From: Acaryochloris marina S15
Lineage (GTDB): Bacteria; Cyanobacteriota; Cyanobacteriia; Thermosynechococcales; Thermosynechococcaceae
Assembly (NCBI RefSeq): GCF_018336915.1
Contig: NZ_CP064925.1
Location: forward strand, 266,053 to 298,052
Reading direction: 5' to 3'
DNA length: 32,000 bases
The notes beneath the pieces are model-generated. The model was not told the origin of the DNA, did not search any database, and saw only the letters and a list, made by a program, of their open reading frames with translations. Each line of letters starts with the position of its first letter. The stretch's first letter is position 1. Of the stretch, positions 1,019 to 21,995 are shown one piece after another. The position numbers were made by a program, and so were the translations under genes.

Positions 1019-1350
1019 GGTGTGTAAGTCTTTTCAATCTCGCGGCTTTCCAAGGTGGGATTGTCGCGCGAGAGCTTCATCACCCCCACCAACATCAAGG
1101 CCTGCACTGAAAAGCCAATCACAATTGCTGTCAAAATCACGGCTTGGGGAACGGGATCGGCATAGGCTCCCTGATGGGTATCTGTGATGATCGGGGTGAA
1201 TAACCCTTGACGAGCTGAGATCTTGACGTAATAGGCGATCACGCCTGTACTCATCACATCCATGGCAATAATTTTCATCATCAGATTTTCTTTGAGGATG
1301 ATGCCAAAAAAGCCACAGAGAATCGTCGCAAATATAAACGCTTCTAACAT
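1015..1350 (-). CDS. mrpC: Mrp/Mnh antiporter subunit C (NuoK/ND4L-like small membrane subunit)
   Basis: 111-aa ORF with three hydrophobic helices and a NuoK-like sequence (MKIIAMDVMSTGV...AVILTAIVIGFSVQALMLV). It is translationally coupled to the downstream subunit D gene. Confidence 0.85.
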   Translation of the reverse strand: MLEAFIFATILCGFFGIILKENLMMKIIAMDVMSTGVIAYYVKISARQGLFTPIITDTHQGAYADPVPQAVILTAIVIGFSVQALMLVGVMKLSRDNPTLESREIEKTYTP

Positions 1351-1405
1351 GGTGATTTAAAAAGGATTAGTAAAAAAGGGGGTCCGAGGATTTATGAGAG
1401 AGAGT

Positions 1406-1439
1406 TGCGATGGCCACAGGCCGGTCGGAGACCATCGCA
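1406..1439 (-). other. GC-rich hairpin in the nhaS3-like/mrpC spacer (8 perfect bp plus G-U and C-G, 14-nt loop)
   Basis: TGCGATGG at 1406-1413 is the exact reverse complement of CCATCGCA at 1432-1439. No adjacent U-tract, so it is not a canonical terminator. It may be an mRNA processing or stability element. Confidence 0.3.
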
Positions 1440-1453
1440 GCCATCCTCATCAA

Positions 1454-2854: not shown

Positions 2855-3194
2855 ATCTAAAATTCAAGTCAAACAATTACGTCAAAGCAGAAAGACATTC
2901 TTCGATTCGCTTAAAAGTTAGTGTCCCGATTTATTCGCCTTACATCAGAAAAAAATGCCATTCTGAAAGCATTACTAAATAAAGGTTTTAGAAAATCACT
3001 TACAGCGGATCGCAGGTTGGTAGGGGACATATTCAATCTTGGAGCATTTACTGATCAAGCTTTTTAAGAGTTGTGGCTGTCCCCCATCTACATGAAAACC
3101 GCTGTAATTGCCCTCTTAGCAATGGCTAGTAAATCGAGACACTAACTGAATTCTTATAGATCTAAAATTTTGTGAGAACGAGCGTCGTTTAGAT

Positions 3195-3557
<363 letters not shown>

Positions 3558-3624
3558 CTACATAGAAACTCAGGAAAACGCTAGAGCTGAGTGCTATCAC
3601 CTTGATCTAGCCTTGGTGTGGGTT

Positions 3625-3661
3625 GCCGGGTCAGGGGAGTACCGACAAACCGCGACCCGGC
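3625..3661 (-). other. Intercistronic hairpin between sbtA and sbtB (8-bp GC-rich stem, 21-nt loop)
   Basis: GCCGGGTC at 3625-3632 pairs with GACCCGGC at 3654-3661. The hairpin starts 5 nt after the sbtA stop. No U-tract follows it. Confidence 0.35.
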
Positions 3662-3666
3662 TAGGA

Positions 3667-4755
3667 TCAGCTACCTCCCATCAGGGCTTGGGCAAGCCCG
3701 ATGTAGAGCGGTATTCCCAAGGCAAGCGCAACTGGCGTGCCGACGGCTGTGGATGAGCCGATATAGGCGGAGGGATTAGCTGACGGAATGCCAGCTCTTA
3801 AGGTAGGCGGCCCTGAGATATCTGAACTTGAGGCAGCGATGACGGCCAGGATTACGCAGCCACCAGGGCTAAATCCCGTAGTGTAGTGGGCAATCATACC
3901 GAAACCAAAGGCGATGAGCCCATGAAGTAGTGGGGCTATTGCAGCATAGAGGGCGTACCACTGGCCCACCTTGCGTAGCTCACCAATCCTTGCCGTGGCC
4001 TCCATACCCATGACCAGCATCAGTATCGAAAGCAGGCCGCGGAAGAGGGGATTGAAGAAGCTCTCATAGACACTTTCTGGTCGGGTTAGTATACCTAGGG
4101 CAAGGCCGAGTAGCAGTGCCGATAGGGCAGAACCCTGAAGACTTTCCTTGACGATGGGCCATATCTTAACCCGCTTGGTGGTACGCTGCTTGCGGCGATA
4201 CTCGACTGCGGTACCGCCCTGGTTACCGAGATACTCCTGCTTGCTAAGAACCTCGTCTGCGGTATCGTACTGCTTGCTGATATAAACGCTAGCCAAGACG
4301 ATCGCAGTCACGAGAGCTGGGATATCCATGAAGGGATAGAGGGCAGCGGCCCAGGGTTCATATTGGATGCCTTCCGTTTCCATTAGGGTCAGGGCAGCGG
4401 CGAGGGTAGAGCCACTCACGGCACCAAACAAGCCCGCGGTCGCGATCGCATCCACGGTTTTAACATTCGGCATCTTGGCCAAGGTGTAGCGTCCGATGAA
4501 CACGATTAGAATCCCCACGACCATGGCGAATACTGCAGGCAACAGCATCTCCGCCAGATTGGCATTGCGGATCGCAATACCGCCGCTCAGGCCAACTTTT
4601 AAGAGCAGCATGAAGACGATGAACTTATAGATCGCATCTGGAATTTGCAGGCGGCTATTGACGGCGGCAACGACCATACCACCAATCAGAAAGCCGAGGG
4701 TTGGAGACTGCAACTTCGCCAGGAAGAGTGTCATGAAATCGGACAAAAAATCCAC
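3667..4755 (-). CDS. sbtA: Sodium-dependent bicarbonate transporter SbtA
   Basis: The protein aligns along its whole length with what I recall of Synechocystis SbtA (DFLSDF...LQSPTLGFLIGGMV ... SSSDISGPPTLRAGIPSANPSAYIGSSTA). I place the start at the GTG at 4755 (VDFLSDF), which is preceded by AAGGAGG 8 nt upstream. The track start at 4812 would add a non-conserved 19-aa extension. Confidence 0.92.
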   Translation of the reverse strand: MDFLSDFMTLFLAKLQSPTLGFLIGGMVVAAVNSRLQIPDAIYKFIVFMLLLKVGLSGGIAIRNANLAEMLLPAVFAMVVGILIVFIGRYTLAKMPNVKTVDAIATAGLFGAVSGSTLAAALTLMETEGIQYEPWAAALYPFMDIPALVTAIVLASVYISKQYDTADEVLSKQEYLGNQGGTAVEYRRKQRTTKRVKIWPIVKESLQGSALSALLLGLALGILTRPESVYESFFNPLFRGLLSILMLVMGMEATARIGELRKVGQWYALYAAIAPLLHGLIAFGFGMIAHYTTGFSPGGCVILAVIAASSSDISGPPTLRAGIPSANPSAYIGSSTAVGTPVALALGIPLYIGLAQALMGGS

Positions 4756-4904
4756 GTTGAATTCCTCCTTAATCAGAAAAAATTTGAAGAAAGTAAGAGT
4801 GAAGCAATTCACCCTTAAAACACAGGAATTAAGCGAGAACCTGTCAACAGAGTGTCCAGAGATGGCCGTTCTCTAGAACAGGGCAGGGAGGCAAGCTGTC
4901 CTGA

Positions 4905-4938
4905 AACATATTGAATAGATAAATATCTATCAATAGAT
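4905..4938 (-). promoter_or_regulatory. Predicted sbtA promoter overlapped by an ATAG-N8-CTAT palindrome (NdhR/CcmR-type LysR operator)
   Basis: On the minus strand: -35 TTGATA (4933-4928), a 17-nt spacer, and -10 TATGTT (4910-4905). The plus strand at 4915-4938 reads ATAGAT-AAAT-ATCTAT-CA-ATAGAT. The segment 4915-4930 is an exact ATAG-N8-CTAT palindrome. Confidence 0.35.
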
Positions 4939-5469
4939 CTTCTTGTATGTACTAAAGTCTATCTTAAAATGTGTCCTAATTTGCACTGGACAACACAAAA
5001 TGGCAATACGATGTCAAATACAAATTATAAATTTTTCTTATATTTAACTAATTTCAATATATGTCTAGCTAATGTAAATCGCGATCACAGCTTTTTCTTC
5101 GTTGCTGCTTTTCACCAAGGGCTGTAATTGCTTGCACTCTCCCCATTACGTTGGATTACACCTTCGATGGCTGTAGAGCTCAGTGCTAGTGCCTGAAACG
5201 GCGCATACCTTCTATAGATCTACAGATAAAGATCCGTGATTAGCTAGGCAGCTTGTGTACCCAAGGTTTTGCAATATTTGCCCATTAAGACAGTAATTTC
5301 ATTGGGAGTCTGACTAAAGTACAGTAGCCCCTCATCGACCTGCTGAACTAAGTCATCCCTAGTGGTCATAAGTTGGTGTAAAGCCTGAAAACTTTTAAGG
5401 GCCTTGCTTTTTATTGAGCATTGCCTTGTATTGGTATCTGGATAAGTATTATAGGAAGTTAGAAGATTC

Positions 5470-5790
5470 TGATCCCTTCGTTGTTCTATATGGTCAACCC
5501 CATACCGAAAATGAATTGGATGCTTATCTATAGGGGAAAGGAGCCAATTTTTAAGGCTTCCCCGCCAAGATAATTCTTACACCGACTTATGACCACTAGG
5601 GGTGAATCTTAAAGCCGGAGATTACGTCACTGCAGGCCAACTCATTGGCTACAGCGGCAATTCAGACTGGAGTTCTGGTCCTCATTTGCATGTTAAATTG
5701 CAGAAGCCTAGCCAAAGACAGCATTTTACAAAAACAGTACCCTTTGCTATTTCAGGAACTTGTAAAGAAGAACCATTCGCTCAGAAATGA
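5470..5790 (+). pseudogene. Remnant of an M23/LytM-family metallopeptidase (C-terminal half only; frameshifted, with an in-frame TGA)
   Basis: 5593-5790 encodes ...LKAGDYVTAGQLIGYSGNSDWSSGPHLHV, the M23 HxH motif region. The same frame upstream reads ...DNSYTDL then TGA (5590-5592). An earlier segment (GKEPIFKASPP) is in another frame. No N-terminal half or signal peptide is present. Confidence 0.55.
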
Positions 5791-6217
5791 TAGGGCTGTT
5801 GTCAGACTGCATTAAGAAGTTTTTCTTGGCAAATTGATATTATTCGGTGTGAAATCTTCATCTATTCTCTGAAGACTTCTTCATCTATCTTTAATTTTTT
5901 GAAAAATAGGTATCATCACTGAGGTTATAGCACGAATTTAATGAGATCAAGACGGATGAAGTAGTTAGTATCACTGACTTAATACTGATAATTTAACAAG
6001 ATTAAAACAGTGAAGTACGTATAATTTCGGGCAAATATTTTGCTCCAATACGTTATACCTAAAGGGCACTCCGAAAAACAGATTTTCTTAAGAATTAGAC
6101 ACTGTGCAACTCTTGCAAAACGGTTGCCCCCTCACATTAGTACTTAACTATTTGCCATCAAGAATAATTTTTTCGAGGTGCCCTCAAGATATTTAAGCAG
6201 AATCAGGGTGGATATCG

Positions 6218-8020
6218 ATGCAGATGGGCGGAACTCAAATATTGATGATTGAGGATGATGATCAAGATGTAGAGATTGTCAGGGAATTGCTGGATGTTAA
6301 ACATAATTCAGTCACCCTTCAGCATAGTCGGACACTATCTTCTGGTATAAAGTTACTCAATGAATTCAATACCATTGATGTGGTTCTACTGGATCTATCC
6401 TTAACGGATACCCAAGGGTTAAGCACATTCCATCGGGTACATCAAGCCTTTCCGACCTTACCTTTGATTATTCTCAGCGGCAATGCAGACGAGACAATTG
6501 CCCTTGAAGCGATGCAGGAAGGGGCTCAAGACTATCTTGTTAAAGGCCGCTTTAATAGCACGCTTCTAGCTCGCACTATTCAATACGCATTAGAGAGACA
6601 AAAACAGCAATTAGAGTTGCAGTACAAGAACTTGGCTTTACAGGCTCTATCAGAACAGCTAGAAATTGCGAATCATGAGTTAGAGCATTTAGCTACCTTC
6701 GATGGGTTAACCAGAGTTAATAATCGACGCAAGTTTGATCAAGTCTTTCAAGCTGAGTGGCAACGCCTCATGCGAGAAGGGCGGCCTTTATCCTTGATTC
6801 TATGCGATGTCGATCACTTTAAGGCCTATAACGATACCCATGGCCACCCAGCAGGAGATCGCTGTTTACAGCAAGTAGCAAGAGCCATTGCTAAGGTTGC
6901 CAAGCGACCAGCAGACTGTGTGGCTCGGTATGGCGGGGAAGAATTTGTGGTGGTGTTACCCAACACAGATCGCTCTGGAGCAGTGCATGTCGCTGAGGCC
7001 ATCAGAGCAGAAATTGGGGCACTCCAATTACCTCATGAGGCGTCTTCAGTGGGTAGTTACATCAGTCTTAGCTTTGGGGTGGCGAGCCTGATTCCTAATG
7101 AGGATGTTGCTCCCGCTCTACTGATTGAAGCAGCAGATCAAGCCTTGTATGCTGCCAAAGAACACGGTCGAAATCGAGTATACTCCCATGCTGTTGATTG
7201 TCTAGATCCAGCTTTGGACGCTAGCGATACTCAACGATGGGTGAACAGATTACAACTCGCTTTGGACAAAGATCACTTTCGGCTTTATGCCCAGCCTATC
7301 CAGCGACTCAATTCCAGTTCTGACAAGCAATATTTTGAGATTTTACTCCGACTATGGGAACAACCCGGTGTCATTAGTTCACCGGGTTTATTTCTACCCA
7401 TGGCTGAACAATATGACTTTATGACCCGGATTGACCATTGGGTCATTGATCACTTATTTGCCGATCTGCATGAGATTAAAGGAATCATGCAGCATGATGC
7501 TCAGTTCTTTATCAATTTATCTAGTAGTAGCTGTAGGAACAACGAACTATTACATTTTTTGAGTCAGAGATTAGTTCACCATGACTTACAGGCGGAACAA
7601 TTTTGTTTTGAAATCACAGAAACGGTGGCTAGCAATCATATTTCTGCAGCCGCTGAGTTAAGTCGTGGCCTCAAAGATATAGGCTGCAAGGTTGCTTTAG
7701 ATGACTTTGGCAATGGTCTATCTTCGTTCTTACACCTCAAATCAATCCCGGCAGATTATGTAAAAATTGACGGCTCATTTGTCAAAGATATAGCTGTTGA
7801 TCCAGTTTCGATTGAGATTGTTGGGGCCGTTCATCGGATAGCTAAAAGAATGGGGTTGGAGACTATTGCTGAATATGTAGAATCCCAAGCCATTCTTGAC
7901 TCAGTTTCAAGTTTAGGAATCGACTATGCCCAAGGCCATTATTATGACCCAGCTCAACCACTGATTGACACTTTAGTGAATTACCAATCCATTCCATATC
8001 GCCAATCGATCAATAACTAA
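6218..8020 (+). CDS. Response-regulator receiver / GGDEF / EAL protein (paralog A). All catalytic motifs are present.
   Basis: REC domain: EDDD pocket, LLDLSL acceptor Asp, ILSG, VKG. GGDEF domain: RPAD I-site five residues before GGEEF, and DVDHFKAYND. EAL domain: EILLR, FINLS, FEITE, DDFG, KIDG, AEYVE, QG. Confidence 0.93.
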   Translation: MQMGGTQILMIEDDDQDVEIVRELLDVKHNSVTLQHSRTLSSGIKLLNEFNTIDVVLLDLSLTDTQGLSTFHRVHQAFPTLPLIILSGNADETIALEAMQEGAQDYLVKGRFNSTLLARTIQYALERQKQQLELQYKNLALQALSEQLEIANHELEHLATFDGLTRVNNRRKFDQVFQAEWQRLMREGRPLSLILCDVDHFKAYNDTHGHPAGDRCLQQVARAIAKVAKRPADCVARYGGEEFVVVLPNTDRSGAVHVAEAIRAEIGALQLPHEASSVGSYISLSFGVASLIPNEDVAPALLIEAADQALYAAKEHGRNRVYSHAVDCLDPALDASDTQRWVNRLQLALDKDHFRLYAQPIQRLNSSSDKQYFEILLRLWEQPGVISSPGLFLPMAEQYDFMTRIDHWVIDHLFADLHEIKGIMQHDAQFFINLSSSSCRNNELLHFLSQRLVHHDLQAEQFCFEITETVASNHISAAAELSRGLKDIGCKVALDDFGNGLSSFLHLKSIPADYVKIDGSFVKDIAVDPVSIEIVGAVHRIAKRMGLETIAEYVESQAILDSVSSLGIDYAQGHYYDPAQPLIDTLVNYQSIPYRQSINN

Positions 8021-8052
8021 TCAAATGCATCCATGCATTTACGGGGGGATCC

Positions 8053-9816
8053 ATGCAAGTAGCTAGTACGCAGATATTAATGATCGAGGATGACGATCAA
8101 GATGTTGAGATGGTTCAGCATTTTCTTGATGATATGCCCATAGTACCGTTTACTCTCAAACACAGAAATACTCTGTCAGGGGGGATTAATATGCTTCAAG
8201 ATAGTGAAGCCATTGATCTCATTCTGCTGGATCTATCCTTGCCTGATGCTCATGGCTTAGATACTTTTCATCAAGTACATCAAGCTTTTCCTCAAAAGCC
8301 GCTCATTATCCTAAGTGGCAATTCAGATCCAACAGTAGCCGATGAAGCCTTGCAAGAGGGAGCCCAAGATTTCCTCGTTAAAGGGGACTTTGATAGCACT
8401 TCTCTCTGCTTCTCTATTCAACATGCTTTAGAACTTCAAAAGCATCGAGTTGAGCTAGAGCTTCAGGACACCACCATCAATGCCTTATCAAAACAGTTGG
8501 AGATCGCCAGAAGAGAAATTGAAAAACTGGCAACCCTAGACTCTCTGACCAGCGTACTGAATAGAAATGGCTTTGATGAAGTCTGTTTGTCAGAATGGAA
8601 ACGACTTCAGCGAGAACAGAAACGATTGTCCCTGATCCTATGCGAGATAGACCCTATAGAAGGAAAAAACAATTGCCCCTCTCAAGCCTGGAAAGATAAT
8701 TGTTTGCAGCAAATTGCAAAGGCAATGACCAAAGTGGCCAAGCGTCCTGGAGATTGTGTCGCTAGATGTAGCGAAAATCAGTTTGCTATCCTCTTACCCC
8801 ATACCGATATCCTTGGGGCTACATTGATCGCTGAATCCATTAGAACTGAAATCCATGGGCTCAGCATGAATTATTCCTCAGGCTTACATTGCCTACCGAT
8901 CACCTTGAGTTACGGAGTCACCAGCCATATTCCCACTACTAATGATTCTCCTTCATTGTTGTTAGAAGCGGCGAATCAAGCTTTAGCTGGAGCGAGGAGA
9001 CAAGGTCAAAACCGAGTATTTTGGCAAACTATTGGTGATGTTAATACCGATCTATACACTTATCAAACTTTGTATTGGGTTGGCAGACTCCATCAGGCCC
9101 TGCTGTCCGATCAGTTTCAGCTATACGCTCAACCGATTCATTCCCTCAAGGGTCAACCAGAAATCAAGGGATATGAAATACTGCTACGCTTAAACGACCA
9201 GCAAGGAATTTCTTCCCCTGGAATGTTTTTACCAATGGTAAAACAGTATGACTTTATGACCCAGATTGATCAGTGGGTGATTGAGCACCTGCTACGAGCG
9301 CTTTCAAAAAGGCAAGCCAAGAATCAAGATAAATCCTCATTCTTCATCACTCTATCTGCTGCTACTTGTAAAAGCGGAAGAATCTCTGATTATATCCAGC
9401 AGCAATTAAGCAGATATGATTTTCCTGCTGAACGGGTTACTTTCCTCATCTCAGAAACCACTGCATTGAAGCATCTATCCAAAACAACAACCCTGTGCAA
9501 CTCACTTAAAGCTTTGGGCTGTCACATCGCATTGAATGATTGCGGGAGTGATATCTCAGCCTTTAGCCAACTAAGGACGATTGGGGCAAATTACGTGAAA
9601 ATTGATGGCAGTTTAGTCGAAGGCATCACCACTGATCCTGTCATTCAAGAAATTGTGGCATCGATACAGGAAGTAGCCAAAGTCATGAAGATGCAAACAA
9701 TTGCTGAGCAGGTTGAATCATATTCCACCCTTAAAGCACTATCAGAATTAGGGATAGATTATGCTCAAGGACATTGTTATGAACGAGCAACACCACTCAA
9801 ACAAATCCTAACGTAA
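8053..9816 (+). CDS. REC / degenerate GGDEF / degenerate EAL protein (paralog B). It is a candidate c-di-GMP receptor rather than an enzyme.
   Basis: Same architecture and N-terminus as paralog A (MQVASTQILMIEDDDQDVE). The A-site is SENQF instead of GGEEF, and DxDHFKxxND is lost, but RPGD (RxxD) is retained. Relative to paralog A, the EAL domain changes are N to T (FITLS), ExxE to LISE, and DDFG to NDCG. Confidence 0.9.
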   Translation: MQVASTQILMIEDDDQDVEMVQHFLDDMPIVPFTLKHRNTLSGGINMLQDSEAIDLILLDLSLPDAHGLDTFHQVHQAFPQKPLIILSGNSDPTVADEALQEGAQDFLVKGDFDSTSLCFSIQHALELQKHRVELELQDTTINALSKQLEIARREIEKLATLDSLTSVLNRNGFDEVCLSEWKRLQREQKRLSLILCEIDPIEGKNNCPSQAWKDNCLQQIAKAMTKVAKRPGDCVARCSENQFAILLPHTDILGATLIAESIRTEIHGLSMNYSSGLHCLPITLSYGVTSHIPTTNDSPSLLLEAANQALAGARRQGQNRVFWQTIGDVNTDLYTYQTLYWVGRLHQALLSDQFQLYAQPIHSLKGQPEIKGYEILLRLNDQQGISSPGMFLPMVKQYDFMTQIDQWVIEHLLRALSKRQAKNQDKSSFFITLSAATCKSGRISDYIQQQLSRYDFPAERVTFLISETTALKHLSKTTTLCNSLKALGCHIALNDCGSDISAFSQLRTIGANYVKIDGSLVEGITTDPVIQEIVASIQEVAKVMKMQTIAEQVESYSTLKALSELGIDYAQGHCYERATPLKQILT

Positions 9817-9884
9817 TTTCTTTTCTTACTAAGAACTCTCCCTTCGTCAATGAAAAGTGAGACATCAATAGAGCAATCAATTTT

Positions 9885-10421
9885 TTATCCATAAAAACTA
9901 ACCACGTTGTTTAGCAGCATCCCTGTTGATTGGACGGAAGGTGGAACTTCTGCATTCCTCTGGTTTGCCAGGAACTGCTTCCAAGCCGCAGTAATAGTGG
10001 AAGGTGCAACACCAACAAGCATTGCTAACAAGTTATTTGGAATTCTTTGGATCTCTTCCAGACTGAACTGTTGGCTAAACATTACTAATATAGCGATTCC
10101 CCTATTGAGGGGGGAGCTGATCTCACAGATTTCCTTTAATTGTTCAATGTTCTTTATCCGATTCTGAAAAGCACTGAAGCGCATCTCGTCAGTTTTAGGA
10201 ATTTCATATTCAACTGCTCCTAATACATGGATACTGATACATTCTGGGTCAAATGGACCTCCAATAGCTGCACCAGGGCCAATGTACTCTGCATAGTATT
10301 TCTTTTGGAGAATAACACCTGTTTGTTGATGATTCACAATCGACCATAGATGTCCGTTCTGTAGGATTTCAATAGATAGATGCTCTCGCATATTTGGAGA
10401 AGCTACTTTATGTTGTGACAT
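9885..10421 (-). CDS. Small CRP/FNR-like protein: a short beta-barrel-like N-terminal part plus a C-terminal helix-turn-helix. Function unknown.
   Basis: 178-aa ORF. The C-terminal segment IPNNLLAMLVGVAPSTITAAWKQF looks like a CRP-family recognition HTH. The N-terminal IGPGAAIGG...VLGAVEYEIP resembles the cNMP-barrel pattern. This assignment rests on pattern recognition only. Confidence 0.5.
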   Translation of the reverse strand: MSQHKVASPNMREHLSIEILQNGHLWSIVNHQQTGVILQKKYYAEYIGPGAAIGGPFDPECISIHVLGAVEYEIPKTDEMRFSAFQNRIKNIEQLKEICEISSPLNRGIAILVMFSQQFSLEEIQRIPNNLLAMLVGVAPSTITAAWKQFLANQRNAEVPPSVQSTGMLLNNVVSFYG

Positions 10422-10842
10422 AAGTGAAATAAATGAATAAATGCTAGAAATATGAATTTTTAGGAGTAAGATACTTTGACTATTATCATCAGAGTTATAT
10501 TTATTCTAGTAAAGATTAGAATAGGATATTACTTGTCTGTTCAATGTATCTATAGCCATCATAATATTTGACTATTATTTTTTCATCCGTAATAATACGG
10601 CAAAATAAATTTTTAATTAATATATAATTCAGTACTAATAAGCTCTATACAAAGTATACATATGAATAGTATGAAAGCCTTTACTGTTGCTTAAGTGCAG
10701 CTATTTAATGGATTATTTTGTGATATTTATAACTTATACATCGCAATAGATTTATGCTTGTCGTTACCTGACAGAAGTCTTTCTATGAGTTTAAAAAATC
10801 TTAGACTAAATACAATTTTTACAACTAGACTAGATTGAAGAT

Positions 10843-11835
10843 CTACATCTGAATAGGTTGGAAAAAGTGAAGGCAATTGCGACCTTGTTCCTTGGCCATA
10901 TATAGAGATTGATCTGCCAGTTCAATTAATTGAGAGGGAGCGATTTCTTTCTTTGGAATAACACTGGCTACCCCTAAACTGAGACTAATCCAATGACCCA
11001 CTGAGGAAGATATATGAGGAATATGGAGTGCTTCAATTTCTGCTCTGATGGCCTCTGCAACATGGACAGCCCCCGATTGATCTGTGTTAGGTAACACTAC
11101 TGCAAATTCTTCCCCACCATACCGAGCCACACAGTCTGCTGGCCGCTTGGCAACTGTCTTAATAGCATGGGCTACTTGCTGTAAACAGTGATCTCCAGCC
11201 GGGTGACCATAGGTATCGTTATAGGCCTTAAAGTGATCGACATCGCATAGGATTAAAGAAAGGGGTTGCCCTTCCCGCATTAATCGGACCCACTCAGACA
11301 TAAATACTGTGTCAAATCGACGTCGGTTGCTAAGCTTAGTCAAGCTGTCTATTACAGCAATATTTTCAAGTTTACGGTTTGCTATTGTTAACTCTTTGGA
11401 GATTTTTTTCAAAGATTCGTTCTTCTCTCTCAATTCTGAGCGTAAATTTTGTCGTTCTAGAGCGAATTGAATTGAACAACATAATACAGTGGCGTCAAAA
11501 TGTCCTTTGAATAGACAATCTTGTGCTCCATGCTGCAATAGGTGAAGTGCTTGCAATGGGTCCAGATTGCCACTGAGAATAATCAGAGGCATTTCAGGGA
11601 AGGTCAGCTGAATTTGTTGAAATGCTTCTAGGCCATGGGCATCAGTTAAAGATAGATCAAGGAGTATGAGGTCGAAGGCAGGATGATGGTGAAGTCGAGC
11701 TATCCCTTCTGCCAATGTCTTCCTATGTTCAAGAGTAGCGGAAAAACTGTGACGGCCCTCCAGTAATTCTTTGATGATTTCAACATCTTGTTTATCATCT
11801 TCAATCATCAAAATCCGAGTATCACCAATCTGCAT
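10843..11835 (-). CDS. REC-GGDEF diguanylate cyclase (paralog C, no EAL domain)
   Basis: 330 aa. The N-terminus MQIGDTRILMIEDDKQDVE is paralogous to A and B. RPAD I-site, GGEEF and DVDHFKAYND are intact. The nucleotide sequence of the GGDEF part is close to paralog A, with identical tracts of 39 and 26 nt. Confidence 0.92.
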   Translation of the reverse strand: MQIGDTRILMIEDDKQDVEIIKELLEGRHSFSATLEHRKTLAEGIARLHHHPAFDLILLDLSLTDAHGLEAFQQIQLTFPEMPLIILSGNLDPLQALHLLQHGAQDCLFKGHFDATVLCCSIQFALERQNLRSELREKNESLKKISKELTIANRKLENIAVIDSLTKLSNRRRFDTVFMSEWVRLMREGQPLSLILCDVDHFKAYNDTYGHPAGDHCLQQVAHAIKTVAKRPADCVARYGGEEFAVVLPNTDQSGAVHVAEAIRAEIEALHIPHISSSVGHWISLSLGVASVIPKKEIAPSQLIELADQSLYMAKEQGRNCLHFFQPIQM

Positions 11836-12497
11836 CGCCTTACTCCCCTATTCTTTTTAGACAATGGCACATGCATATTAAAGTATGAACTCAAAAAAAT
11901 TTGTTAATTCCATAATGTTTTCTCATCTCTCAGAATAATGTCTGCATATCTATAGTGAATTGAAAATTAACAGAAAATACAACTAATGATGAAGTAAAGA
12001 TTCAGTTAAGATCTTCTGTGCTATTTGCTACTGTTATTCAATAAATTGATGCTTTACTAATCATGCTAAGTATCTTATATTCTTAGTCCTAAAATTAACC
12101 TCAATAACTAATAAGAATTGACTTGATACCAATTAGTACCTAAGAGTATAATTTTAATTATTTGCTAACCCAACTCAGTATTGGGTTTCACGAGTTTGAG
12201 AGTTACACCTTCAGGCACAGCTTGGTATAAGCTACAAATACCTAGCCTATAAAAACTCTATTTAAATTTAATGTTCGTCAATTAACTAACATCAAGAAGA
12301 GATGTTTTCTGTTAATTTTTTATTCACATAAGAAATATAATTGCATTATTGCTTGGAGGCAATGAAATAGATTTGCCGAAAATGTTCTTTACTTCATTCG
12401 ATTGTCGTTTAATTTAGGTAGATGCTGGAAGTTAGTTGTTTTCTATAACGGGCATATTAATAAGAAGTAGTTTAGATGGAACTAATTTAGTGCATCG

Positions 12498-14912
12498 ATG
12501 ATTGGGACAACATCTTCTACAAAAGTTCAGCATTTTCTTGTTATTGAAGATGAATTAGGGAAGCGTACAATTCCACTACTGGAAACGACTTGTTCTATTG
12601 GCCGAGATCCCAGCAACTCGATTGTGATTCAATCACCATCAGCATCTCGTCAGCATGCTTTACTGATGAGGGTCACGATGCCTGATACCGATAGCCACAT
12701 GTTTCGCTTGATTGATGGAAACCTCCAAGGTAAACGCAGTAAGAATGGTTTGAAAGTTAATGACCATACTTGTACCACACATGATTTGAATCATGGTGAT
12801 GAAGTCATTTTTGGCGAGGATGTGCGGGCCAGATATTACATGACGAACAATATCGCTGATGTGCATTTTCTAGAGTCTTGTGCTGCTGATGAAGTCACGG
12901 GCTTTTTGTCTAATCTTCATAATCCAATGCAGACCTTAACGCAATCAGGTGAGGTACTTGCTAGCTTTAATGAGGCTGCTATTGTCCGTTTAGCATCTTT
13001 CCCAGAGCTCTTTTCTAACCCCATCATCGAAATTAACTTAAAGGCAAAACTACTTATTTAAATCCCGCTGCCGTAGCCCAATTCCCTCAACTACGGGATC
13101 TTCAATCTAAACACCCAATATTGGAGGGTTAGTCACATTAATTGCCAAGGATCATGAAAAGTTTTTTGTTAGAGAAGTAGAAATAGGAACCCAAGTTTTT
13201 GAGCAATCCGTTCACTTTATTGCTGAGAGTGATCTGATTCGAAGTTATATCGTTGATATTACAGAACGAAAGTTAACGGAAGCGGCTTTGAATGATAGTG
13301 AGCGCCGATTTCGGGCTATTTTCAATCAAACCTTTCAGTTCTCAGGTCTTTTGAAGCCTAATGGTATTTTGTTGGAGGCTAATCAAACTGCTCTGGAGTT
13401 TGGTGGTCTCCATTTAGAAAATGTGATCAATTGTCCACTCTGGGAAACTCGATGGTGGACCAATTCAACAGAGACTCAAAGTCGGCTCCAGAATGCTGTA
13501 TTGGAGGCGGCTAAGGGAAAGTTCGTTCGGTATGAGGTGGATGTACTTGGAGCCAAGGACAAGGTGACAACCATCGATTTTTCTTTAAAGCCCGTCCGTG
13601 ATGAACTCGGTGTTGTCGTGTTGCTGATTTTCGAAGGTCGAGATATCAGCTATCACAAGCAAGTTGAAGCAGACTTACAGCAGGCACATAGCGAACTTGA
13701 GTTAAGAGTGCAACAACGAACAGCTGAGCTCAAGCAGAGTAATGAGCAATTAAGAAGCGAAATTGGTGAACGTGAGCGTGCCGAAACAGCTTTGCAATCG
13801 AGTGTTGCCACTAATCGGGCCTTGATCAATGCAATGCCCGATTGGATGTTTCGCATTAATAGGGATGGTATTTTCGTCAATTATAAAGATGCCTTGAACA
13901 CCAAGTTCCCCTTCCAACTGAAGAGTTTTTAGGTCAGTCCCTAGAAAGGATCTTTTGCCAAGACACGGCACAACCGTTTTTTGACTGTATTCAAGCAGCA
14001 TTTACCACTAAGGAGATGCAGCTACTCGAATATCAACTGGAGTCTGAGAGTAACCTTTGCTTTTTTGAAGCTCGGATTGTAGTGAGTGCCGAGAATGAAG
14101 TGATGGCTGTAATTCGCGATATCACTGACCGCAAACGGGCTGAAGACGATATCCGCACAGCCCTGACCAAGGAACGGGAACTCAACGAACTCAAGTCTCG
14201 CTTTGTCGCTATGACCTCCCATGAGTTTAGAACCCCCTTGGCAACTATTTTGTCTTCGGCGGAGCTGTTGGAGCATTATGGCCACAAGTGGGACGATACT
14301 CGGAAGCTCAAGCACTTGAAACAAATTCAACAATCTGTAGAACATATGACAGGCCTGTTAAATGATGTGCTTCTACTGGGTAAAGCAGAATCAGGGAATC
14401 TCGCCTTTAAACCCATCCACATGCACCTAACAGATTTTTGCAGAGGTCTAGTAGAAGAGCTGCAGATTACTACGAATACTCATGAGATTGTATGCCAGTT
14501 GCAAGAACAAACTACAGAACTACATATGGATGAGAAATTGCTTCGGCATATCTTTACGAATTTACTCTCTAATGCAATTAAATACTCCCCCCAAGGAGGA
14601 CGAATAGATTTTGGTTTGGCCTTTGAAAATGACTATGCAATCTTCAATGTCCAAGATCATGGTTTAGGGATTCCCCAAACGGAGTGTGATCGCGTTTTTA
14701 ATTCCTTTAATCGGGCCAGCAATGTTGGCAATATTTCAGGGACAGGATTGGGGTTGGCTATCGTGAAACGTTCTGTTGATTTGCATGGGGGTGAAATCTC
14801 ACTCACTAGTCAAGAAAAGGTCGGAACCACCTTTACTGTACGACTGCCAGTAGGGGGAATTAACGGGATTGGGGAAAACAAATTTCAAATGACGTTCCAG
14901 CCTCTCGCTTGA
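12498..14912 (+). pseudogene. FHA - PAS - PAS - PAS - HisKA - HATPase sensor histidine kinase, split by three 1-nt frame breaks
   Basis: ORFs 12498-13061 (FHA: CSIGRDPSNSIVI...SRQHA), 13288-13932 (PAS plus coiled coil) and 14016-14912 (PAS end, HisKA SHEFRTPL, N/G1/G2 boxes) join seamlessly. The join requires restoring one base at each of the A-run at about 13040-13042, the T-run at about 13129-13130 and the C-run at 13908-13911. The frame classes 0 to 2 to 1 to 0 fit three single-base deletions. Confidence 0.85.
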
Positions 14913-15027
14913 CAGTTATGGTACCTGAAATCTGTTTTGTTAAGGTGTTAAGCATCCGTAAGCCCAAAGTGTGGGATCTTGCAACGTTCAGGTTAGCGGG
15001 TAAACCAATACCGCTATCGAAAATTTT

Positions 15028-15327
15028 CCACCTGTAAATGTTTCCGGGTTAACTTGCCAAGCCTGAGTTTTGGAGGTTTTACAATGGTTTCACTCCACTC
15101 AGATTGGAAGGCATCTCTTTTTGTCAAAGTCAAAATTGTACTCAGTGATGACTACGGCAATGTCTTACCAGCAAGTTTCGCCAGAAGAATAAGGGGATAA
15201 GCTAGTCTGAACGAGTAACTCGCGCCTTAACTGTACTGAGAACTGCGGAACTAAATGGCCAATAGCAGCAGCTCTGGCTCCCTCAAACCAATGCAGAGTA
15301 AGTGAACCCGGAATAATTTACAGGTGG
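15028..15327. repeat. Inverted-repeat pair enclosing about 254 bp (MITE-like or IS-remnant candidate)
   Basis: CCACCTGTAAATGTTTCCGGGTT (15028-15050) against AACCCGGAATAATTTACAGGTGG (15305-15327) gives 21 of 23 complementary positions. Flanking A/T runs are partly complementary. There is no long ORF inside. Confidence 0.45.
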
Positions 15328-15520
15328 GATTTTTCTAAGCTGTGTCGCCAACCAAGCAACTTATTTGGGTGAATGTGCTGACGCCATTTGAACAGTTTAG
15401 GGGTTAGGGAGAGATGCCTAGGAGATTCAGATGGGTCAGCAGGGAGCGTTCTATAGGGGTGGGGTTTATATTGAGAAATAAGGGTATTTGGTGAACAATG
15501 ATTTCTGAAGGTAGAAAGAC

Positions 15521-15964
15521 ATGGTTAGGGCTTTACTCAGGTTTGGTTCTGGGGATTTCGACTTACTTGAGATTTTGCGGAGAGGGCCAGATGCTTGGAA
15601 CCAGTGGCGTGAGAAAAATCCTAATCAGGAGATAAATCTCAGTGGTGCAAAACTCAACGGTGCCAATCTCCACAGTGCCGACCTCCACAATGCAAAACTA
15701 AGCAGTGCAAAACTCAACGGTGCCGATCTCCGCAGTGCCGACCTTAGCGATGCAAAGCTCAACGATGCGAACCTCACCCGTGCAAAACTAAGCAGTGCAA
15801 AACTGAACAATGCGAACCTCGTTGGTGCCAACCTTTTTGGTGCCCACCTCTTCAATACTGATTTCACGAATGTCAACCTCAGACGTGCCGAACTATTCGG
15901 TGCTATTGTTTTTGAAGAAACTAAGATTGATCCTAAATGGCTTCCTAAACCTCATCCAAGATGA
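15521..15964 (+). CDS. Pentapeptide-repeat protein
   Basis: 147 aa with about 20 consecutive A(D/N)LxX pentapeptides (GAKLNGANLHSADLHNAKLSSAKLNGADLRSADLSDAKL...). Confidence 0.9.
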   Translation: MVRALLRFGSGDFDLLEILRRGPDAWNQWREKNPNQEINLSGAKLNGANLHSADLHNAKLSSAKLNGADLRSADLSDAKLNDANLTRAKLSSAKLNNANLVGANLFGAHLFNTDFTNVNLRRAELFGAIVFEETKIDPKWLPKPHPR

Positions 15965-15999
15965 GATCTGGAGTTTTTAGATCTTGGGTGTTTTTGCAT
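15957..15999 (+). terminator. Candidate intrinsic terminator of the pentapeptide gene
   Basis: CCAAGAT...ATCTTGG and an inner AGATCT...AGATCT pairing can form a stem. It is followed by GTGTTTTTG. Confidence 0.45.
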
Positions 16000-16115
16000 A
16001 GATTCTTTTCGGGGCTTATGCGAAATACCTTCTATATATCAACAGTTTTGATTCTTTTGATTAATTCTCAGTAAAAAGGGCTCTTGTCCTCTTTTGTCGT
16101 CATAAAAAGTTATTT

Positions 16116-17156
16116 TTAACGTCTTTCTCTAGCTTTTTGCATAGCAATTTCAGCATTTTTCAAAGTAATATCAACCACATCATCAGCTGCCTGACCATAG
16201 CCAACACCAATGCTACCTGTGATAGTGATTTCATGATCTTGAATTGCAAAAGGCTGTTCAAGGCAAAATAACACTTTCTCCACAAATAAATCTACCTGTT
16301 TTTCATCTGTTAATTTGCTAAAAAGAATAGCAAATTGATCTCCTCCTAAACGAGCTAACATATCGTCGGGATTGATTACCTCCTGTAGCTTTACAGCTAA
16401 TTGTTTCAATAGTTCATCCCCAACACAGTAGCCAAAAGAGTAATTAACCTCTCTAAAGTGATCGCAATCGATATAGAGCACGGCGAATTTATAAGATTTA
16501 TCCATCTTGGCTAAAAATAGAGACTGTTCCAAACGCTTCAAGAATGAAGCTCTATTGGGGATATTTGTGAGTAGGTCATAATGACTTGTTTCTAATAAGC
16601 GGGTGTTCGAAAGTTTCAATTTACTATTCTGCTCAATGACCCATTCTTGGAGTTGGTTATTCAAACCCAGGATTTTTTCTTGAGCTGATTTTAATAAAAG
16701 CTGATTATGCACCCGTGCTAATACTTCTTCAACTTGAAAAGGTTTTGTGAGATAGTCTACCCCTCCCACATCAAAGGCTTTGACTTTATCTAAGGGATCG
16801 TCTAAAGCACTAAGGAAAATAATGGGAATATTTGCTGTTTGGGGATTCCGTTTTAGTTGAACACAAACTTCATACCCATTTAGATCTGGCATGAGGATAT
16901 CTAATAGGATTAAATCGGGTAGGAGAGAGTCTACAGAGTTTAACGCCATTTCACCACCCGTTGCTTTTCGAACAGAATAGCCCTGAATAGACAACATGCT
17001 AGAGAGCAACCGCAGATTTTCTAACGTGTCGTCGACAATCAGAATCTCACTGGGAAGTAATTGGGTGGCTGGACTGGAGAGATCCATATTCAGATTAGTA
17101 TGGAGTTCATTCATGGTTGGTTTTAAAGTGCGATGGGTCAAATTTGGTTGCATCAT
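16116..17156 (-). CDS. REC - coiled coil - degenerate GGDEF (GGDQF) response regulator
   Basis: REC domain: VDD, LLDILMPD acceptor, FLSA, TKP. In the GGDEF domain the motif is GGDQF, there is no RxxD (NPDD instead), and DCDHFREVNYSFGY replaces DxDxFKxxNDxxGH. The start overlaps the upstream kinase stop (ATGA at 17153-17156). Confidence 0.88.
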   Translation of the reverse strand: MMQPNLTHRTLKPTMNELHTNLNMDLSSPATQLLPSEILIVDDTLENLRLLSSMLSIQGYSVRKATGGEMALNSVDSLLPDLILLDILMPDLNGYEVCVQLKRNPQTANIPIIFLSALDDPLDKVKAFDVGGVDYLTKPFQVEEVLARVHNQLLLKSAQEKILGLNNQLQEWVIEQNSKLKLSNTRLLETSHYDLLTNIPNRASFLKRLEQSLFLAKMDKSYKFAVLYIDCDHFREVNYSFGYCVGDELLKQLAVKLQEVINPDDMLARLGGDQFAILFSKLTDEKQVDLFVEKVLFCLEQPFAIQDHEITITGSIGVGYGQAADDVVDITLKNAEIAMQKARERR

Positions 17157-19685
17157 TCCATCAAAGCGTCCATCAACTGAACGATTTTCTCGAATTGATA
17201 ATTCTCAACCCAGTTGGTCAAAGCTATGGCTAAAGATTGATGCTCTGAAGGGATTTGCTCAATGAGTTGTAAAAGGAGGACATCGTTTCCTTGACTCGCT
17301 CTTTGACCGATGCCCTTTATCCAATCTGGTGGCATGATCCTTAAGCTCTCTGGATCAAGATTTCCATGATTATGGGGTTGGTCTTTATTCTGGGTATCGT
17401 GCTTTTGAAGAGAGTCTTCTGTTATATATTTCACTCCAAGATGGGCTGCGATTTTCTGTATCAGTTCATTTTGTTGAAAGGGTTTGCGTACAAAATCATC
17501 ACATCCTGCATCAAATATTTTTTTGTTGTTTTCTTCAAATACACTTGCTGTCAGGGCAATCACAACAGTCTCCTTCCCTTGAGAAGTCGCCTTAATGTGT
17601 TGTGTTGCCTGGTAGCCATCCATTTCAGGCATACGTATATCCATCCATATCAAATGGGGCTGCCACTCTTGCCAGATTTTTATCGCTTCTCGACCATTCT
17701 TGGCTTCTCGCACTGAGAAGCCCATCAAACATAGGAAATCAACGAGGGGAGCTCGATTCGTTTGCTCATCATCAGCAACAAGAAGGCGAAATTCAGTTGA
17801 TTGGGGGCCACACAAACAGGCTGAACCATCGCTTCACTGTCAGTGTCTGTCGGCATACCATTGGTAATCACTAAGGGAATATGAAAGACGAATGTAGAGC
17901 CTTGTCCTTTTTGGCTATTGACGGAGAGATCCCCTCCCATCAGTCGTACAAACTTCTTGCTAATACTGAGTCCTAAGCCCGTACCTTCTCTTGATTCCAA
18001 GCCAATATCACCCTGCTCAAATGCAAGAAAGAGTTTATCCAGGCTTTTAGAATCTATTCCAGGACCTGTATCACTGATAGCAAACGTCAAAGTCTGAGCG
18101 TCTACAGAAACATATAAGTCGATCTGCCCCTTTTGAGTAAATTTGATGGCATTACCCAGAATGTTAATCAACACTTGACGGAGCTTACCTTGATCCGCCT
18201 TGATATATCGAGGGACAAGGGCTTGTCCATGAAAATAGAGTTGCAGCTGCTTGCTTGAGGCTTTGAGGCTAAACAGCTCTTCCAACTCGATGAGCAAGTT
18301 GTATAGGTCAAAGCTGACAGGCGTGAGATGGAGTTGACCTGACTCAATTTGGCCATTTCCAACACATCATTGATTAATGCTAGAAGGTGTTTCCCACTGC
18401 GGTTAATCGTATTAACGTACTTGGTATCCTGCACCCCTAGGTGTTGAGAGCGCTGCATCAGCTGGGCATAGCCTAAGATGGCATTAAGAGGGGTACGGAG
18501 TTCATGGCTCATATGCTTAAGAAATCGCTTTTTGAGCTATTAGCCCTTTCTGCCTCCTCTTTCGCAGCTTTGAGTGCTTTAGTTTGTTTTTGCGAATGGG
18601 CTAATAGCTCAGCTTGCTGTACTGCTACCCTAATTGGGTCCCACCTGAGTCATGATTTGGGTCGCTGATGAGTCCCAATGGAAAGGAGCAGCATCTTGAG
18701 TCGCCATAAGTAATCCCATAAATGCGTACCATCGACAATGGGAACCACGAGATAAGATCCGATGTTTAATCGCTTTAAGACTTAAGGGTATAAGGATCAA
18801 ATCCAAACTCATTGACATCTGTGATCGTTCGACAACGCACTTCTTGACTGGGGTCTCCCAAGGCAAATTCGTAAAGATAGGTTTGACTCAGTATTTGTTT
18901 TAGGCCCTTTGGGGGAGAAATCTCTACAGTCTTAGCTCCCGGATGAGCAGCTTTAAGAGCCATGATGGAGGGGCTATTCTGGCTCACCGACTCAGCGACT
19001 AACGTCCCGCTCCAATCGGATTAAATGATATACCAAAGTCCGATCGCAAGCAATAACCTGCTTTAATTCTTGAGTCGTATCGACGAATATAGTCTGTATA
19101 TCTAAGGTCTTTCGCATGCGCTGAATGATCCCAGAGAGGGCATGTTCTCGTTCAGCACTTTTTTCAATTCAGCCGTTCGTTCTTGGACAAGGGTCTCTAA
19201 ACCATCATTGAGATTGCGGAGTTCAACTTCGGCTCTTTGGCGTTCCTGAATTTCTTTTTGTAAGGCTTGATTGACTGTTTCCAGTTGTTCTGGCGTTTTC
19301 AAGGATAAGAATTTGGGAAGTAACGTTGCCATTTCCGTAGCTGTATAGCAGGAGACTAGAGCAGTGATAGCTTGCTCCAGTCCCAGACAGCCAGTAGGCA
19401 GGGTGCCATAAGGTCCAAATTTCCAGTAAATGGCCTGTACCACAGAGAACAATGAATGCTCCAAACAACAGAAAATATTCTGAAAGGGACATCGCTCCTT
19501 TTGGAGACGAAGTAGAGCAACATCACAGGAATGGAAAAGTAAGCCACTGCAATTAGTAAATCACTGATTACATGTAGACCTACCAAAGGAGTTTGCCAAA
19601 GGTAACAATGACCGTGAGGCATGTATTGCTCTGGGGAAAACAGATTTTTTAAAGTATTCCAAAGACTATTCATATATCCTGGCAA
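17153..19685 (-). pseudogene. Hybrid sensor histidine kinase: PHGHCYLW membrane module, coiled coil, GAF, HisKA, HATPase, REC and a C-terminal helical tail. It is broken by about 11 frame changes.
   Basis: Tiling ORFs 19356-19685, 19223-19492, 19102-19464, 18775-18987, 18630-18866, 18168-18512, 17725-18297 and 17153-17815, plus unlisted segments, gives a continuous protein only by switching frame repeatedly. Recognisable pieces include MPHGHCYLWQTPL, FLLFGAFIVLCGTGHLLEIWTLWHPAYWLSG, DWSGTLVAESV, SYLVVPIVDGTHLW, MSHELRTPLNAILGYAQLM, GTGLGLSISKKFV and LLVADDEQTNR...WMDIRMPEMDG. Confidence 0.85.
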
Positions 19686-19948
19686 GTGATTGACATAAAA
19701 AAATAGTCACTAACACCGACTTGTCTTCTGATATTTCTTTCTCAAACTGATTGTTCTGAATTGGAGATGAATAGCCGCTTTACATCAGTTAAAGCTTGCC
19801 CCAAAAAAGATATGAATATGCATTAATCCTAGATATTCAGTTGATTTAGATAGATGCTTGGAGATCATTCCTAAAGACTGGGAATGCTGAGATCTAAATG
19901 GGTTGAGCATCCGGCCACTTTGGATATCAGTAGGGGGAAGTTTCATTA

Positions 19949-20400
19949 ATGGCAGATCAACTAACTGCAACAACGGTGCAGCAAACACAAGCCTGGCAAC
20001 AAGCCATTCTGGACAGTGCAGACTTCACGATGATTGCAACAGACCCTCAAGGGATTATCCAAACCATTAATGCTGGGGCACTGCGCAAATTAGGCTATCA
20101 GCCTGAAGAAGTGATTGGTAAAGTTACACCCGCCATTATTCATGATCCACTAGAAGTTCAGGAAAGAGCACAACAACTCTCATGCGAATTGGGCTATTCT
20201 ATTGAACCTGGCTTTGAAGCCTTCGTTGCTAAGGCTCGATTGGGAATACCTGATGAAAATATTTGGACTTATATTCGTAAAGATCAGAGTCATTTTCGGC
20301 TACCAGCATAAAGCGGGAAAAGATTTGAGTATTTTCAGATAGGATCGCACTCTTTTGTAGATGAAATAGGCAAGATATCTGCGGTAGTCACAAAGAGCTG
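19949..20400 (+). pseudogene. 5' fragment of a PAS-domain sensor gene; it ends abruptly at the transposase-like gene
   Basis: ORF 19949-20311 encodes one PAS domain (ILDSADFTMIATDPQGIIQTINAGALRKLGYQPEEVIG...WTYIRKD). The last PAS strands appear only in shifted frames up to about 20400. No output domain follows. Confidence 0.7.
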
Positions 20401-20432
20401 TATCGTACCTTTGCAAGTCAACAGAGGAAACG

Positions 20433-21983: not shown

Positions 21984-21995
21984 CCCTTTAACCCA

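Follow-up and report, generated by a model that had tools for sequence, protein, structure and literature searches.

Three genes for receiver-linked proteins of cyclic di-GMP (c-di-GMP) metabolism lie close together in Acaryochloris marina S15, with a small gene, X, between two of them and the gene of a histidine kinase with FHA and PAS domains next to the third. We analyzed this cluster within a 32,000-nt stretch of contig NZ_CP064925.1 (positions 266,053 to 298,052, forward strand; hereafter the window), in which the genes A, B, X, C and the kinase gene occupy positions 6218–14912. The reading that we consider probable is that the cluster, carried on a plasmid, consists of old paralogues of a single response-regulator family specific to Acaryochloris, copies of which have lost different catalytic sites, together with an extra copy of a core cyanobacterial kinase whose partner is a 233-residue (233-aa) regulator. 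The locus is then an ordinary gene-family expansion, i.e. clustered, partly degenerate REC-GGDEF/EAL paralogues of a well-known type. Only two of its elements, the unnamed CRP-fold family to which X belongs and a phosphorylatable but degenerate B, have some novelty.

Receiver-linked paralogues with different outputs

Positions of the open reading frames (ORFs) were checked against the coordinates of an earlier reading of the window (the original prediction), domains were assigned with Pfam and motifs were compared over 11 family members. A (6218–8020, plus strand) matches Response_reg, GGDEF and EAL, and consists of a receiver (REC), a coiled-coil linker, a GGDEF domain and an EAL domain. Its GGDEF domain carries DVDHFKAYND, an RPAD inhibition site (I-site) and GGEEF at the active site (A-site). 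The EAL domain keeps all catalytic and metal-binding residues of the set defined for RocR and TBD1265 (E of EAL, R, N, ExxE, DD, K, E, Q), which appear as EIL-LR, N, EITE, DDFG, KID, AEYVES and QG. A is predicted to be a phospho-regulated bifunctional cyclase/phosphodiesterase.

B (8053–9816, plus strand) is a tandem paralogue of A, located 32 nt downstream on the same strand, and matches the same three Pfam families, GGDEF more weakly (92 bits). In its GGDEF domain EIDPIEGKNN replaces DxDxFK..ND and SENQF stands at the A-site, with the RxxD I-site retained as RPGD. In its EAL domain N is replaced by T, ExxE by LxxE (E to L) and DD by ND (D to N); the Glu and Arg of the EAL motif, K, E and Q are retained. 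RocR-type EAL enzymes have four metal-1 ligands, three of which B lacks. With neither the GG(D/E)EF plus DxDxFK..ND feature nor the full EAL catalytic set, B is predicted to be non-catalytic; it has the makings of a degenerate receptor, in that both catalytic sites are degenerate while their folds persist in a conserved gene.

C (10843–11835, minus strand) matches Response_reg and GGDEF and comprises a receiver, a coiled coil and a GGDEF domain with DVDHFKAYND, RPAD and GGEEF. It is predicted to be a phospho-activated diguanylate cyclase; its receiver has a Cys at the switch position instead of Tyr or Phe. The C-terminus of C, FFQPIQM, resembles YAQPIQ, the start of the EAL domain of A, a suggestion that C may be a truncated GGDEF-EAL protein; a search for EAL remnants 3' of C gave weak collinear matches only, none of them individually significant (E = 0.4–11). 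A and C both show the features of the REC-GGDEF class, an intact receiver and GG(D/E)EF with DxDxFK..ND. The ORFs, Pfam matches and motifs thus bear out the original calls of a cyclase, a bifunctional enzyme and a non-catalytic protein.

The three receivers score 55–60 bits against Response_reg (cut-off 30), and the acidic pair (E12-D13-D14), D59, S87 and K109 are invariant. They had been described as nearly the same, which holds for the N-terminal ~20 residues and for the loops at D59, S87 and K109 but not overall, where they are mutually 55–63% identical. Synonymous sites are saturated among A, B and C (proportion of synonymous differences, pS, ≥0.76 in the receivers) and the proportion of nonsynonymous differences, pN, is low. 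Saturation at this level of identity argues that the receivers are old paralogues, and it rules out recent gene conversion as the source of their similarity.

Members of the family share a receiver with the motifs ILMIEDDxQDVE, LLDLSL, ILSGN and GAQDxLVKG, a coiled-coil linker and a GGDEF(-EAL) output. When genomes were scanned with the motifs MIEDDDQ and GIDYAQG[HT], full-length relatives with an A/B/C-type receiver were found only in Acaryochloris and Acaryochloridaceae; all remaining matches cover the GGDEF-EAL part alone. Across the 11 family paralogues the loss of catalytic sites forms a mosaic. In a chromosomal singleton that is widely conserved (MBIC11017, bin.176, bin.148, SU_2_1) the GGDEF domain is degenerate (YSGRTF, YNDQTF, YGKQEF) and the EAL domain has N to H and DD to DN, and a paralogue in bin.148 retains GGEEF next to a degenerate EAL domain. 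The B orthologue of NIES-2412, which is full length, is also degenerate (YSEEQF, DVL, N to K, E to V, DD to DN, KIK, E to R); it fails at more EAL positions than B and retains RxxD as RPVD. Between B and this orthologue pN is 0.066 in REC and 0.25–0.27 in GGDEF/EAL, with pS of 0.39–0.78, whereas A and its orthologue differ at pN 0.17 throughout. Low pN relative to pS, and a receiver that is the most conserved part, argue that selection has maintained B, mainly for its receiver, while constraint on the output domains has relaxed. These rates support B as a maintained non-catalytic protein.

A. marina has 60 proteins with c-di-GMP domains, the most among the cyanobacteria surveyed, and the CheY-like domain is a partner in 23% of cyanobacterial c-di-GMP proteins (PMC3747582). 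High gene-duplication rates are described for Acaryochloris in PMC3156569. Given this largest c-di-GMP set and the known duplication of genes on plasmids (PMC3747582; PMC3156569), the cluster fits the pattern of the genus.

Among known systems, WspR (3BRE) aligns end to end with residues 4–321 of A (E = 2e-57), and DgcR (6ZXM, 6ZXC, 6ZXB) also aligns with its REC-GGDEF part. With WspR, DgcR and PleD the paralogues share a receiver, a helical linker and a GGDEF domain with a GG(D/E)EF active site and an RxxD inhibition site. However, the NCBIfam models for PleD and DgcR gave sub-threshold matches far below their equivalog cut-offs, so A, B and C are not orthologues of these proteins. They also differ in a K-G after the conserved receiver Lys, where K-P is usual, in the Cys at the aromatic switch position of C, and in having no established cognate chemosensory or kinase partner. 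The GGDEF-EAL part of A matches RbdA (5XGB, E = 9e-86) and MorA (4RNH), in which the input domain is PAS and not REC. Lpl0329 of Legionella pneumophila is a REC-GGDEF-EAL bifunctional enzyme under the kinase Lpl0330; A has the same domain order with both catalytic sites intact, but no operon-linked kinase.

B matches FimX (7LKQ) and LapD (3PJW), which likewise combine a degenerate GGDEF A-site with an EAL fold that lacks catalytic metal ligands; FimX has a REC-like N-terminal domain and controls type IV pili. Unlike these two, B retains a canonical, apparently phosphorylatable receiver, an RxxD I-site and the Glu and Arg of the EAL motif; it lacks a PAS domain, no partner with a PilZ domain was observed, and its binding of c-di-GMP is putative. 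SesA, SesB and SesC of Thermosynechococcus are a cyanobacterial trio that makes, breaks, and makes and breaks c-di-GMP. Their input comes from light-sensing cyanobacteriochrome GAF domains, their genes do not form a cluster of paralogues, and none of the three is non-catalytic. The likeness lies in several c-di-GMP enzymes with one type of input domain and graded outputs that act on one pool; A, B and C differ as clustered, receiver-linked paralogues with a member, B, that is predicted to be non-catalytic.

By analogy with WspR, DgcR and PleD, phosphorylation of D59 would alter the packing of the coiled-coil dimer. The altered dimer would permit productive pairing of GGDEF domains in C and A and shift the cyclase/phosphodiesterase balance of A, with product inhibition through the RxxD sites and degradation of c-di-GMP by the EAL domain of A. 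B could be a phospho-gated binder of c-di-GMP, probably at RxxD and perhaps at the EAL domain, or else it might pair with A as a non-catalytic subunit or serve as its phosphate sink. Should the paralogues work as a group, they would be a compact example of how one duplicated response regulator gives rise to proteins that make, make and break, and sense one messenger, and B would be a rare c-di-GMP receptor that can also be phosphorylated.

Several further observations concern these genes. A is encoded as an identical protein on the plasmid pMB01 (CP071718.1, 394 kb) of Acaryochloris sp. 'Moss Beach'. A and C form a 662-nt inverted repeat (6513–7174 and 10876–11537), and a short-read contig that matches 6809–11241 breaks at both arms of this repeat (6809 and 11241). 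Over a ~240-nt GGDEF core (aa 184–264) A and C have 80–92% nucleotide identity, compared with 55–65% elsewhere; the core identity exceeds that of A to its own orthologue, and aa 184–264 are a possible gene-conversion tract. B carries seven substitutions in 24 nt (9588–9611) relative to the first Moss Beach copy, which change ADYVKIDSN to ANYVKIDGS near the catalytic-Lys motif. This patch differs from A at the equivalent position and was not copied from it.

The FHA-PAS kinase and the phosphodonor of A, B and C

The FHA-PAS-HisKA-HATPase kinase gene (12498–14912, plus strand) is divergent to C; both its composition and its placement, as originally given, are confirmed by Pfam and by the coordinates. 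In the window it is split in three ORFs, 12498–13061, 13288–13932 and 14016–14912, which match FHA, PAS_4, and HisKA plus HATPase_c. The gene is intact in pMB01 (805 aa), relative to which the window has single-base homopolymer deletions at 13040 (AAA for AAAA), 13126 (GGG for GGGG) and 13908 (CCCC for CCCCC). Intact 805-aa alleles are recorded as QUY45685.1/WP_212666723.1 (A. marina) and UJB72462.1. The former, also present in a read-archive assembly, shares the window-specific residues V234, N309 and K340 and matches the three fragments exactly over 182, 208 and 298 residues. An intact allele exists in the lineage, whether the frameshifts in the window are errors or mark a decayed duplicate. 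The split ORF had been held to weaken any functioning module; the split itself is present, but the objection is mostly moot. Both intact and fragmented kinase proteins are on record for A. marina, which suggests that the strain may carry two copies, like pMB01. That homopolymer indels account for an apparent kinase pseudogene, of which an intact allele is recorded, is a caution in its own right.

FHA-PAS kinases of this family are widespread in cyanobacteria (1771 matches). The closest homologues in other Acaryochloris are chromosomal (82–83% identity), adjoin argS and overlap by 8 nt the downstream gene of a 233-aa REC protein. A homologue with 51% identity in a distant cyanobacterium has the same partner, and pairing with the 233-aa regulator was found in four loci. 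The MBIC11017 homologue (81% identical) lies in an unrelated context and is followed by a transposase, and one homologue with 52% identity stands alone. From these comparisons the plasmid kinase appears to be a recent acquisition that adds a further copy of a core cyanobacterial kinase.

In two-component systems the choice of partner depends mainly on helix 1 of the kinase DHp domain and helix 1 of the receiver (Skerker, Capra, Laub), and duplicated kinase-regulator pairs normally diverge at these specificity helices and become insulated. The DHp domain of the plasmid kinase is 94–97% identical to the chromosomal copies, and its helix 1 (SHEFRTPLATILSSAELLEHYGHKW) matches theirs at every position. 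The 233-aa regulator, too, is widespread (3674 matches); MBIC11017 and Moss Beach-type genomes have it, the window does not. Its receiver shares ~25% identity with those of A, B and C and differs from them across helix 1. Because the DHp domain is unchanged, we infer that the plasmid kinase still addresses this regulator. Most likely it signals to the chromosomal 233-aa protein, and it is probably not the shared activator of A, B and C, with which it has neither conserved adjacency (kinase and C adjoin in S15 and Moss Beach only) nor specificity surfaces that appear mutually adapted.

The original prediction had the FHA-PAS kinase phosphorylate all three proteins, so that a cyclase, a bifunctional enzyme and a receptor would respond in parallel; X would be the transcriptional output and type IV pili the target. 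In this form we regard it as unlikely. Its appeal comes from the divergent position of the kinase gene next to C, from the helix-1 motif DxQDVE(I/M)(V/I) and the acceptor loops shared by A, B and C, and from the joint passage of X, C, the kinase and a pentapeptide gene into a duplicate on pMB01. The predicted CRP/FNR-like fold of X (see below) also fits, as Xanthomonas Clp (3IWZ), described as c-di-GMP responsive, is among its structural matches, and pilBTC lie 7–10 kb away. However, the kinase family is conserved in an operon with the 233-aa regulator, and its DHp helix 1 and the divergent receiver of that regulator point away from A, B and C, as does the unrelated context of the MBIC11017 homologue. 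NIES-2412 has A-B-X with no such kinase in view, and the shared helix-1 motif is a trait of the whole family, found also in paralogues far from such kinases. As for the output, the dyad upstream of X has no second site in the window. The pilB, pilT and pilC genes (T2SSE, T2SSE and T2SSF; 22139–25997, plus strand; each split once by a frameshift in the assembly) are present as reported, but lie beyond 20297, where colinearity with pMB01 ends, and are not adjacent to the cluster in the sister strain Moss Beach. Neighborhood alone had implied a circuit from one kinase to three regulators that comparative data do not support, which gives the locus some cautionary value.

Downstream of the kinase, a pentapeptide-repeat protein is encoded at 15521–15964 (plus strand); the gene accompanies that of the kinase in the pMB01 duplicate. 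At two loci a Ser/Thr protein kinase fused to pentapeptide repeats is encoded ~5 kb upstream of the chromosomal FHA-PAS kinase, and the window protein is 39% identical to the repeat part of this fusion. The pentapeptide protein and the Ser/Thr kinase could be tied to the phospho-Thr-binding FHA input.

Conservation of the gene set and gene X

Co-conservation of the five genes, proposed as a check on the module, was found for parts of the set: A-B-X and C-X recur in relatives, whereas the complete set occurs only in S15 and Moss Beach. The order in NIES-2412 is M23 peptidase, A, B and X, with C not within 800 nt of X, and bin.148 has the M23 gene and A at a contig end. The M23 gene is full length (310 aa) upstream of both A orthologues; the window holds a remnant of it at 5602–5790 (plus strand, Pfam Peptidase_M23). 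In a read-archive contig C (89% identical), X (74%) and an M23 remnant follow each other, and A and B are absent. In the second copy on pMB01 the order is B remnant, X, C and kinase. X is the only recurrent partner, of A-B or of C.

The window is 99.5% identical to pMB01 over 5855–18010 and 98% identical over 1–5888, and colinearity holds up to 20297. Over 14.4 kb the two assemblies are separated by 33 gap openings, which suggest long-read noise; for Moss Beach, a Nanopore assembly was polished with ~7x Illumina data (PMC9029297). An Illumina-derived contig matches 6809–11241 of the window exactly, so that the 3' part of A, B, X and part of C are real sequence; it does not extend to the kinase. 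The replicon is an S15-type A. marina plasmid that carries the cluster. Its mrp/mnh genes open the window, and duplicated mrp genes have been placed at 263–267 kb on an A. marina S15 plasmid (PMC8949462). pMB01 has a second, inverted and partial copy of window positions 9655–16468 with the 3' end of B, X, C, the kinase, an insertion sequence (IS), the pentapeptide gene and part of a further gene, D; it is bounded by a DUF6399 element. The S15-type plasmid may likewise carry two copies of this segment.

On so plastic a plasmid the genes might also form no integrated module at all but be independent leftovers of duplication and rearrangement, B being a decaying pseudo-enzyme, C a truncated copy, the kinase in decay and X a bystander. 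IS elements, the DUF6399 element and the inverted partial duplicate do flank the region, an M23 remnant precedes A and gene order varies by strain. The output domains of B have also changed faster than those of A (pN 0.25–0.27 versus 0.17), and the kinase, a hybrid kinase and the pil genes are frameshifted in the assembly. We nevertheless find this account improbable. B and its NIES-2412 orthologue are full length after synonymous saturation, with pN far below pS and a strongly conserved receiver; A-B-X and C-X recur in different lineages; the Illumina-derived contig is exact over 6809–11241; and an intact kinase allele is on record.

The product of X (9885–10421, minus strand) has 178 aa and belongs to an as yet unnamed family of cyanobacterial proteins; its predicted fold is CRP/FNR-like. 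No Pfam or NCBIfam match was found; a search at E ≤ 10 gave only E1-E2_ATPase (0.071) and TraL_transposon (0.11), which are unrelated and at chance level, and sequence and profile searches against the PDB returned nothing relevant. A word-indexed search yielded three homologues, all from Acaryochloris, while an exhaustive HMMER search from an alignment of X homologues found 199 relatives at E ≤ 1e-3 and 125 at 1e-10, the named ones cyanobacterial. The family thus comprises at least 199 clusters at 50% identity and has no Pfam model. In the 78-sequence family alignment the other 77 members gave no Pfam match at E ≤ 0.01, and cNMP_binding and HTH_Crp_2, which define CRP/FNR membership by sequence, were found in none of the 78, X included.

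A first structure model of X, built from three sequences, was discarded (predicted local distance difference test, pLDDT, 59). The AlphaFold (AF2) model from the 78-sequence alignment reached a pLDDT of 90 and a predicted template-modelling score (pTM) of 0.80, and has ~five strands in a reduced beta-barrel, a long helix (78–99), four more helices and a helix-turn-helix-like C-terminus. With this model as Foldseek query, the top 50 PDB matches were all CRP/FNR proteins (probability 0.75–1.0, ~160 aligned columns, template-modelling score, TM, 0.34–0.51, E = 2e-3 to 6e-2), namely NtcA, GlxR, Clr, MtbCRP, Vfr, CprK, Clp, FixK2, CAP and FNR. NtcA matched best (probability ~1.0, TM 0.45–0.51). The predicted fold aligns with CRP/FNR proteins (NtcA, CRP, Vfr, GlxR, Clp, FixK2, FNR) over ~160 of the 178 residues, and LVGVxPxTI near the C-terminus resembles the CRP helix-turn-helix. 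X differs in its shorter barrel of ~five strands, a wing that is not predicted and the absence of the recognition-helix Arg and Glu. The earlier description of X as a CRP-like helix-turn-helix protein therefore appears to hold for the modelled fold, though X is no sequence member of the CRP/FNR family and shows no CRP or helix-turn-helix signature.

A 14-bp dyad (CCGTATTATTACGG, 10587–10600), ~166 nt upstream of X, is a candidate operator. It overlaps a promoter-like site, TTGCCG-18-AATAAT, and the surrounding block (10540–10610) is conserved in three lineages, including the read-archive contig of a second strain and NIES-2412. No further copy of the dyad occurs in the window. A promoter/terminator scan of 5700–16200 gave counts not above those of shuffles, and we take the site that overlaps the dyad as a lead only. 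Rfam gave no match at gathering scores anywhere in the window, nor any at E ≤ 1 within 9800–12600, and an RNA element such as a riboswitch between C and X or between C and the kinase was rejected on this basis.

Going by its modelled fold, X may be a transcription factor. One can go further and propose that an undescribed cyanobacterial family of shortened CRP/FNR-fold proteins has been recruited in Acaryochloris as effector of a receiver-gated c-di-GMP unit, with the dyad at 10587–10600 as its operator and B as a phospho-gated c-di-GMP receptor that modulates A, FimX/LapD-like but under two-component control; in this full form the proposal is a long shot. The CRP-fold family, which has no database model, is the one element of the locus that could reward experiments.

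Some of the evidence also weighs against our preferred reading of a cluster of old paralogues beside an extra core kinase. The two activities of A, c-di-GMP binding by B and the binding of DNA or a ligand by X are all inferred from motifs or fold, and the Foldseek E-values for X fall short of 1e-3, with a top TM of ~0.5. Some relatives of X form the N-terminal part of larger proteins, namely HlyD-type membrane-fusion proteins and a Wza/SLBB exporter. Elsewhere, no consistent GGDEF/EAL linkage of X relatives was found, including the free-standing ones (Neosynechococcus and another cyanobacterium). Exporter fusions and unlinked relatives together argue against a simple DNA-binding role for X. 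Lastly, X, C, the kinase and the pentapeptide gene were duplicated as one unit in pMB01, and the kinase and C share a divergent intergenic region, which makes a local functional link between these two possible.

Neighboring two-component genes and plasmid features

A second two-component c-di-GMP unit lies on the minus strand downstream of the cluster. It consists of a hybrid kinase with an ETR1_N (ethylene-receptor-like) domain followed by HisKA-HATPase-REC (17153–19685, five or more ORF pieces) and of D (16116–17156; QUY45892.1), whose start overlaps the stop codon of the hybrid kinase. D is a fourth REC-GGDEF protein, of a different REC subfamily, with GGDQF and no RxxD, and is probably also non-catalytic.

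As local donor candidate for A, B and C the ETR1_N kinase is at least as good as the FHA-PAS kinase, and kinases of this lineage occur near A orthologues in three genomes (4–11 kb from A, B and C in the window, and ~5 kb from A in both NIES-2412 and bin.148, the latter with 51–75% identity in the N-terminal domain), but phosphorylation of the three paralogues by it or another kinase is the least likely of the alternatives, given that it has a receiver of its own and an operon with its own REC-GGDEF protein, D, which would necessitate a histidine phosphotransfer step, and that other kinases and receivers lie in the several kb between.

The DUF6399 element of the window (20297–22024, plus strand) starts exactly where colinearity with pMB01 ends, and the element that bounds the pMB01 duplicate is 94% identical to it; it may be mobile or a recombination hotspot. 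At the other end, the mrp/mnh antiporter region at 1–900 shows ~12% differences from Moss Beach, mostly at third bases, compared with ~0.3% in the remainder, which suggests a recombination boundary near 900–1000.

Frameshift-split genes are unevenly spread. The kinase, the hybrid kinase, DUF6399, pilB, pilT and pilC (12498–14912 and 17153–25997) have ~10 or more splits in ~9 kb, compared with none in the 6 kb of A, B, X, C and D. The split and unsplit genes are only slightly different in homopolymer density, which does not account for this distribution. Further downstream, uppS and lysA are grouped with the gene of a DAC-domain diadenylate cyclase (c-di-AMP synthase) on the minus strand at 27342–30285, housekeeping genes that hint at a chromid-like replicon.

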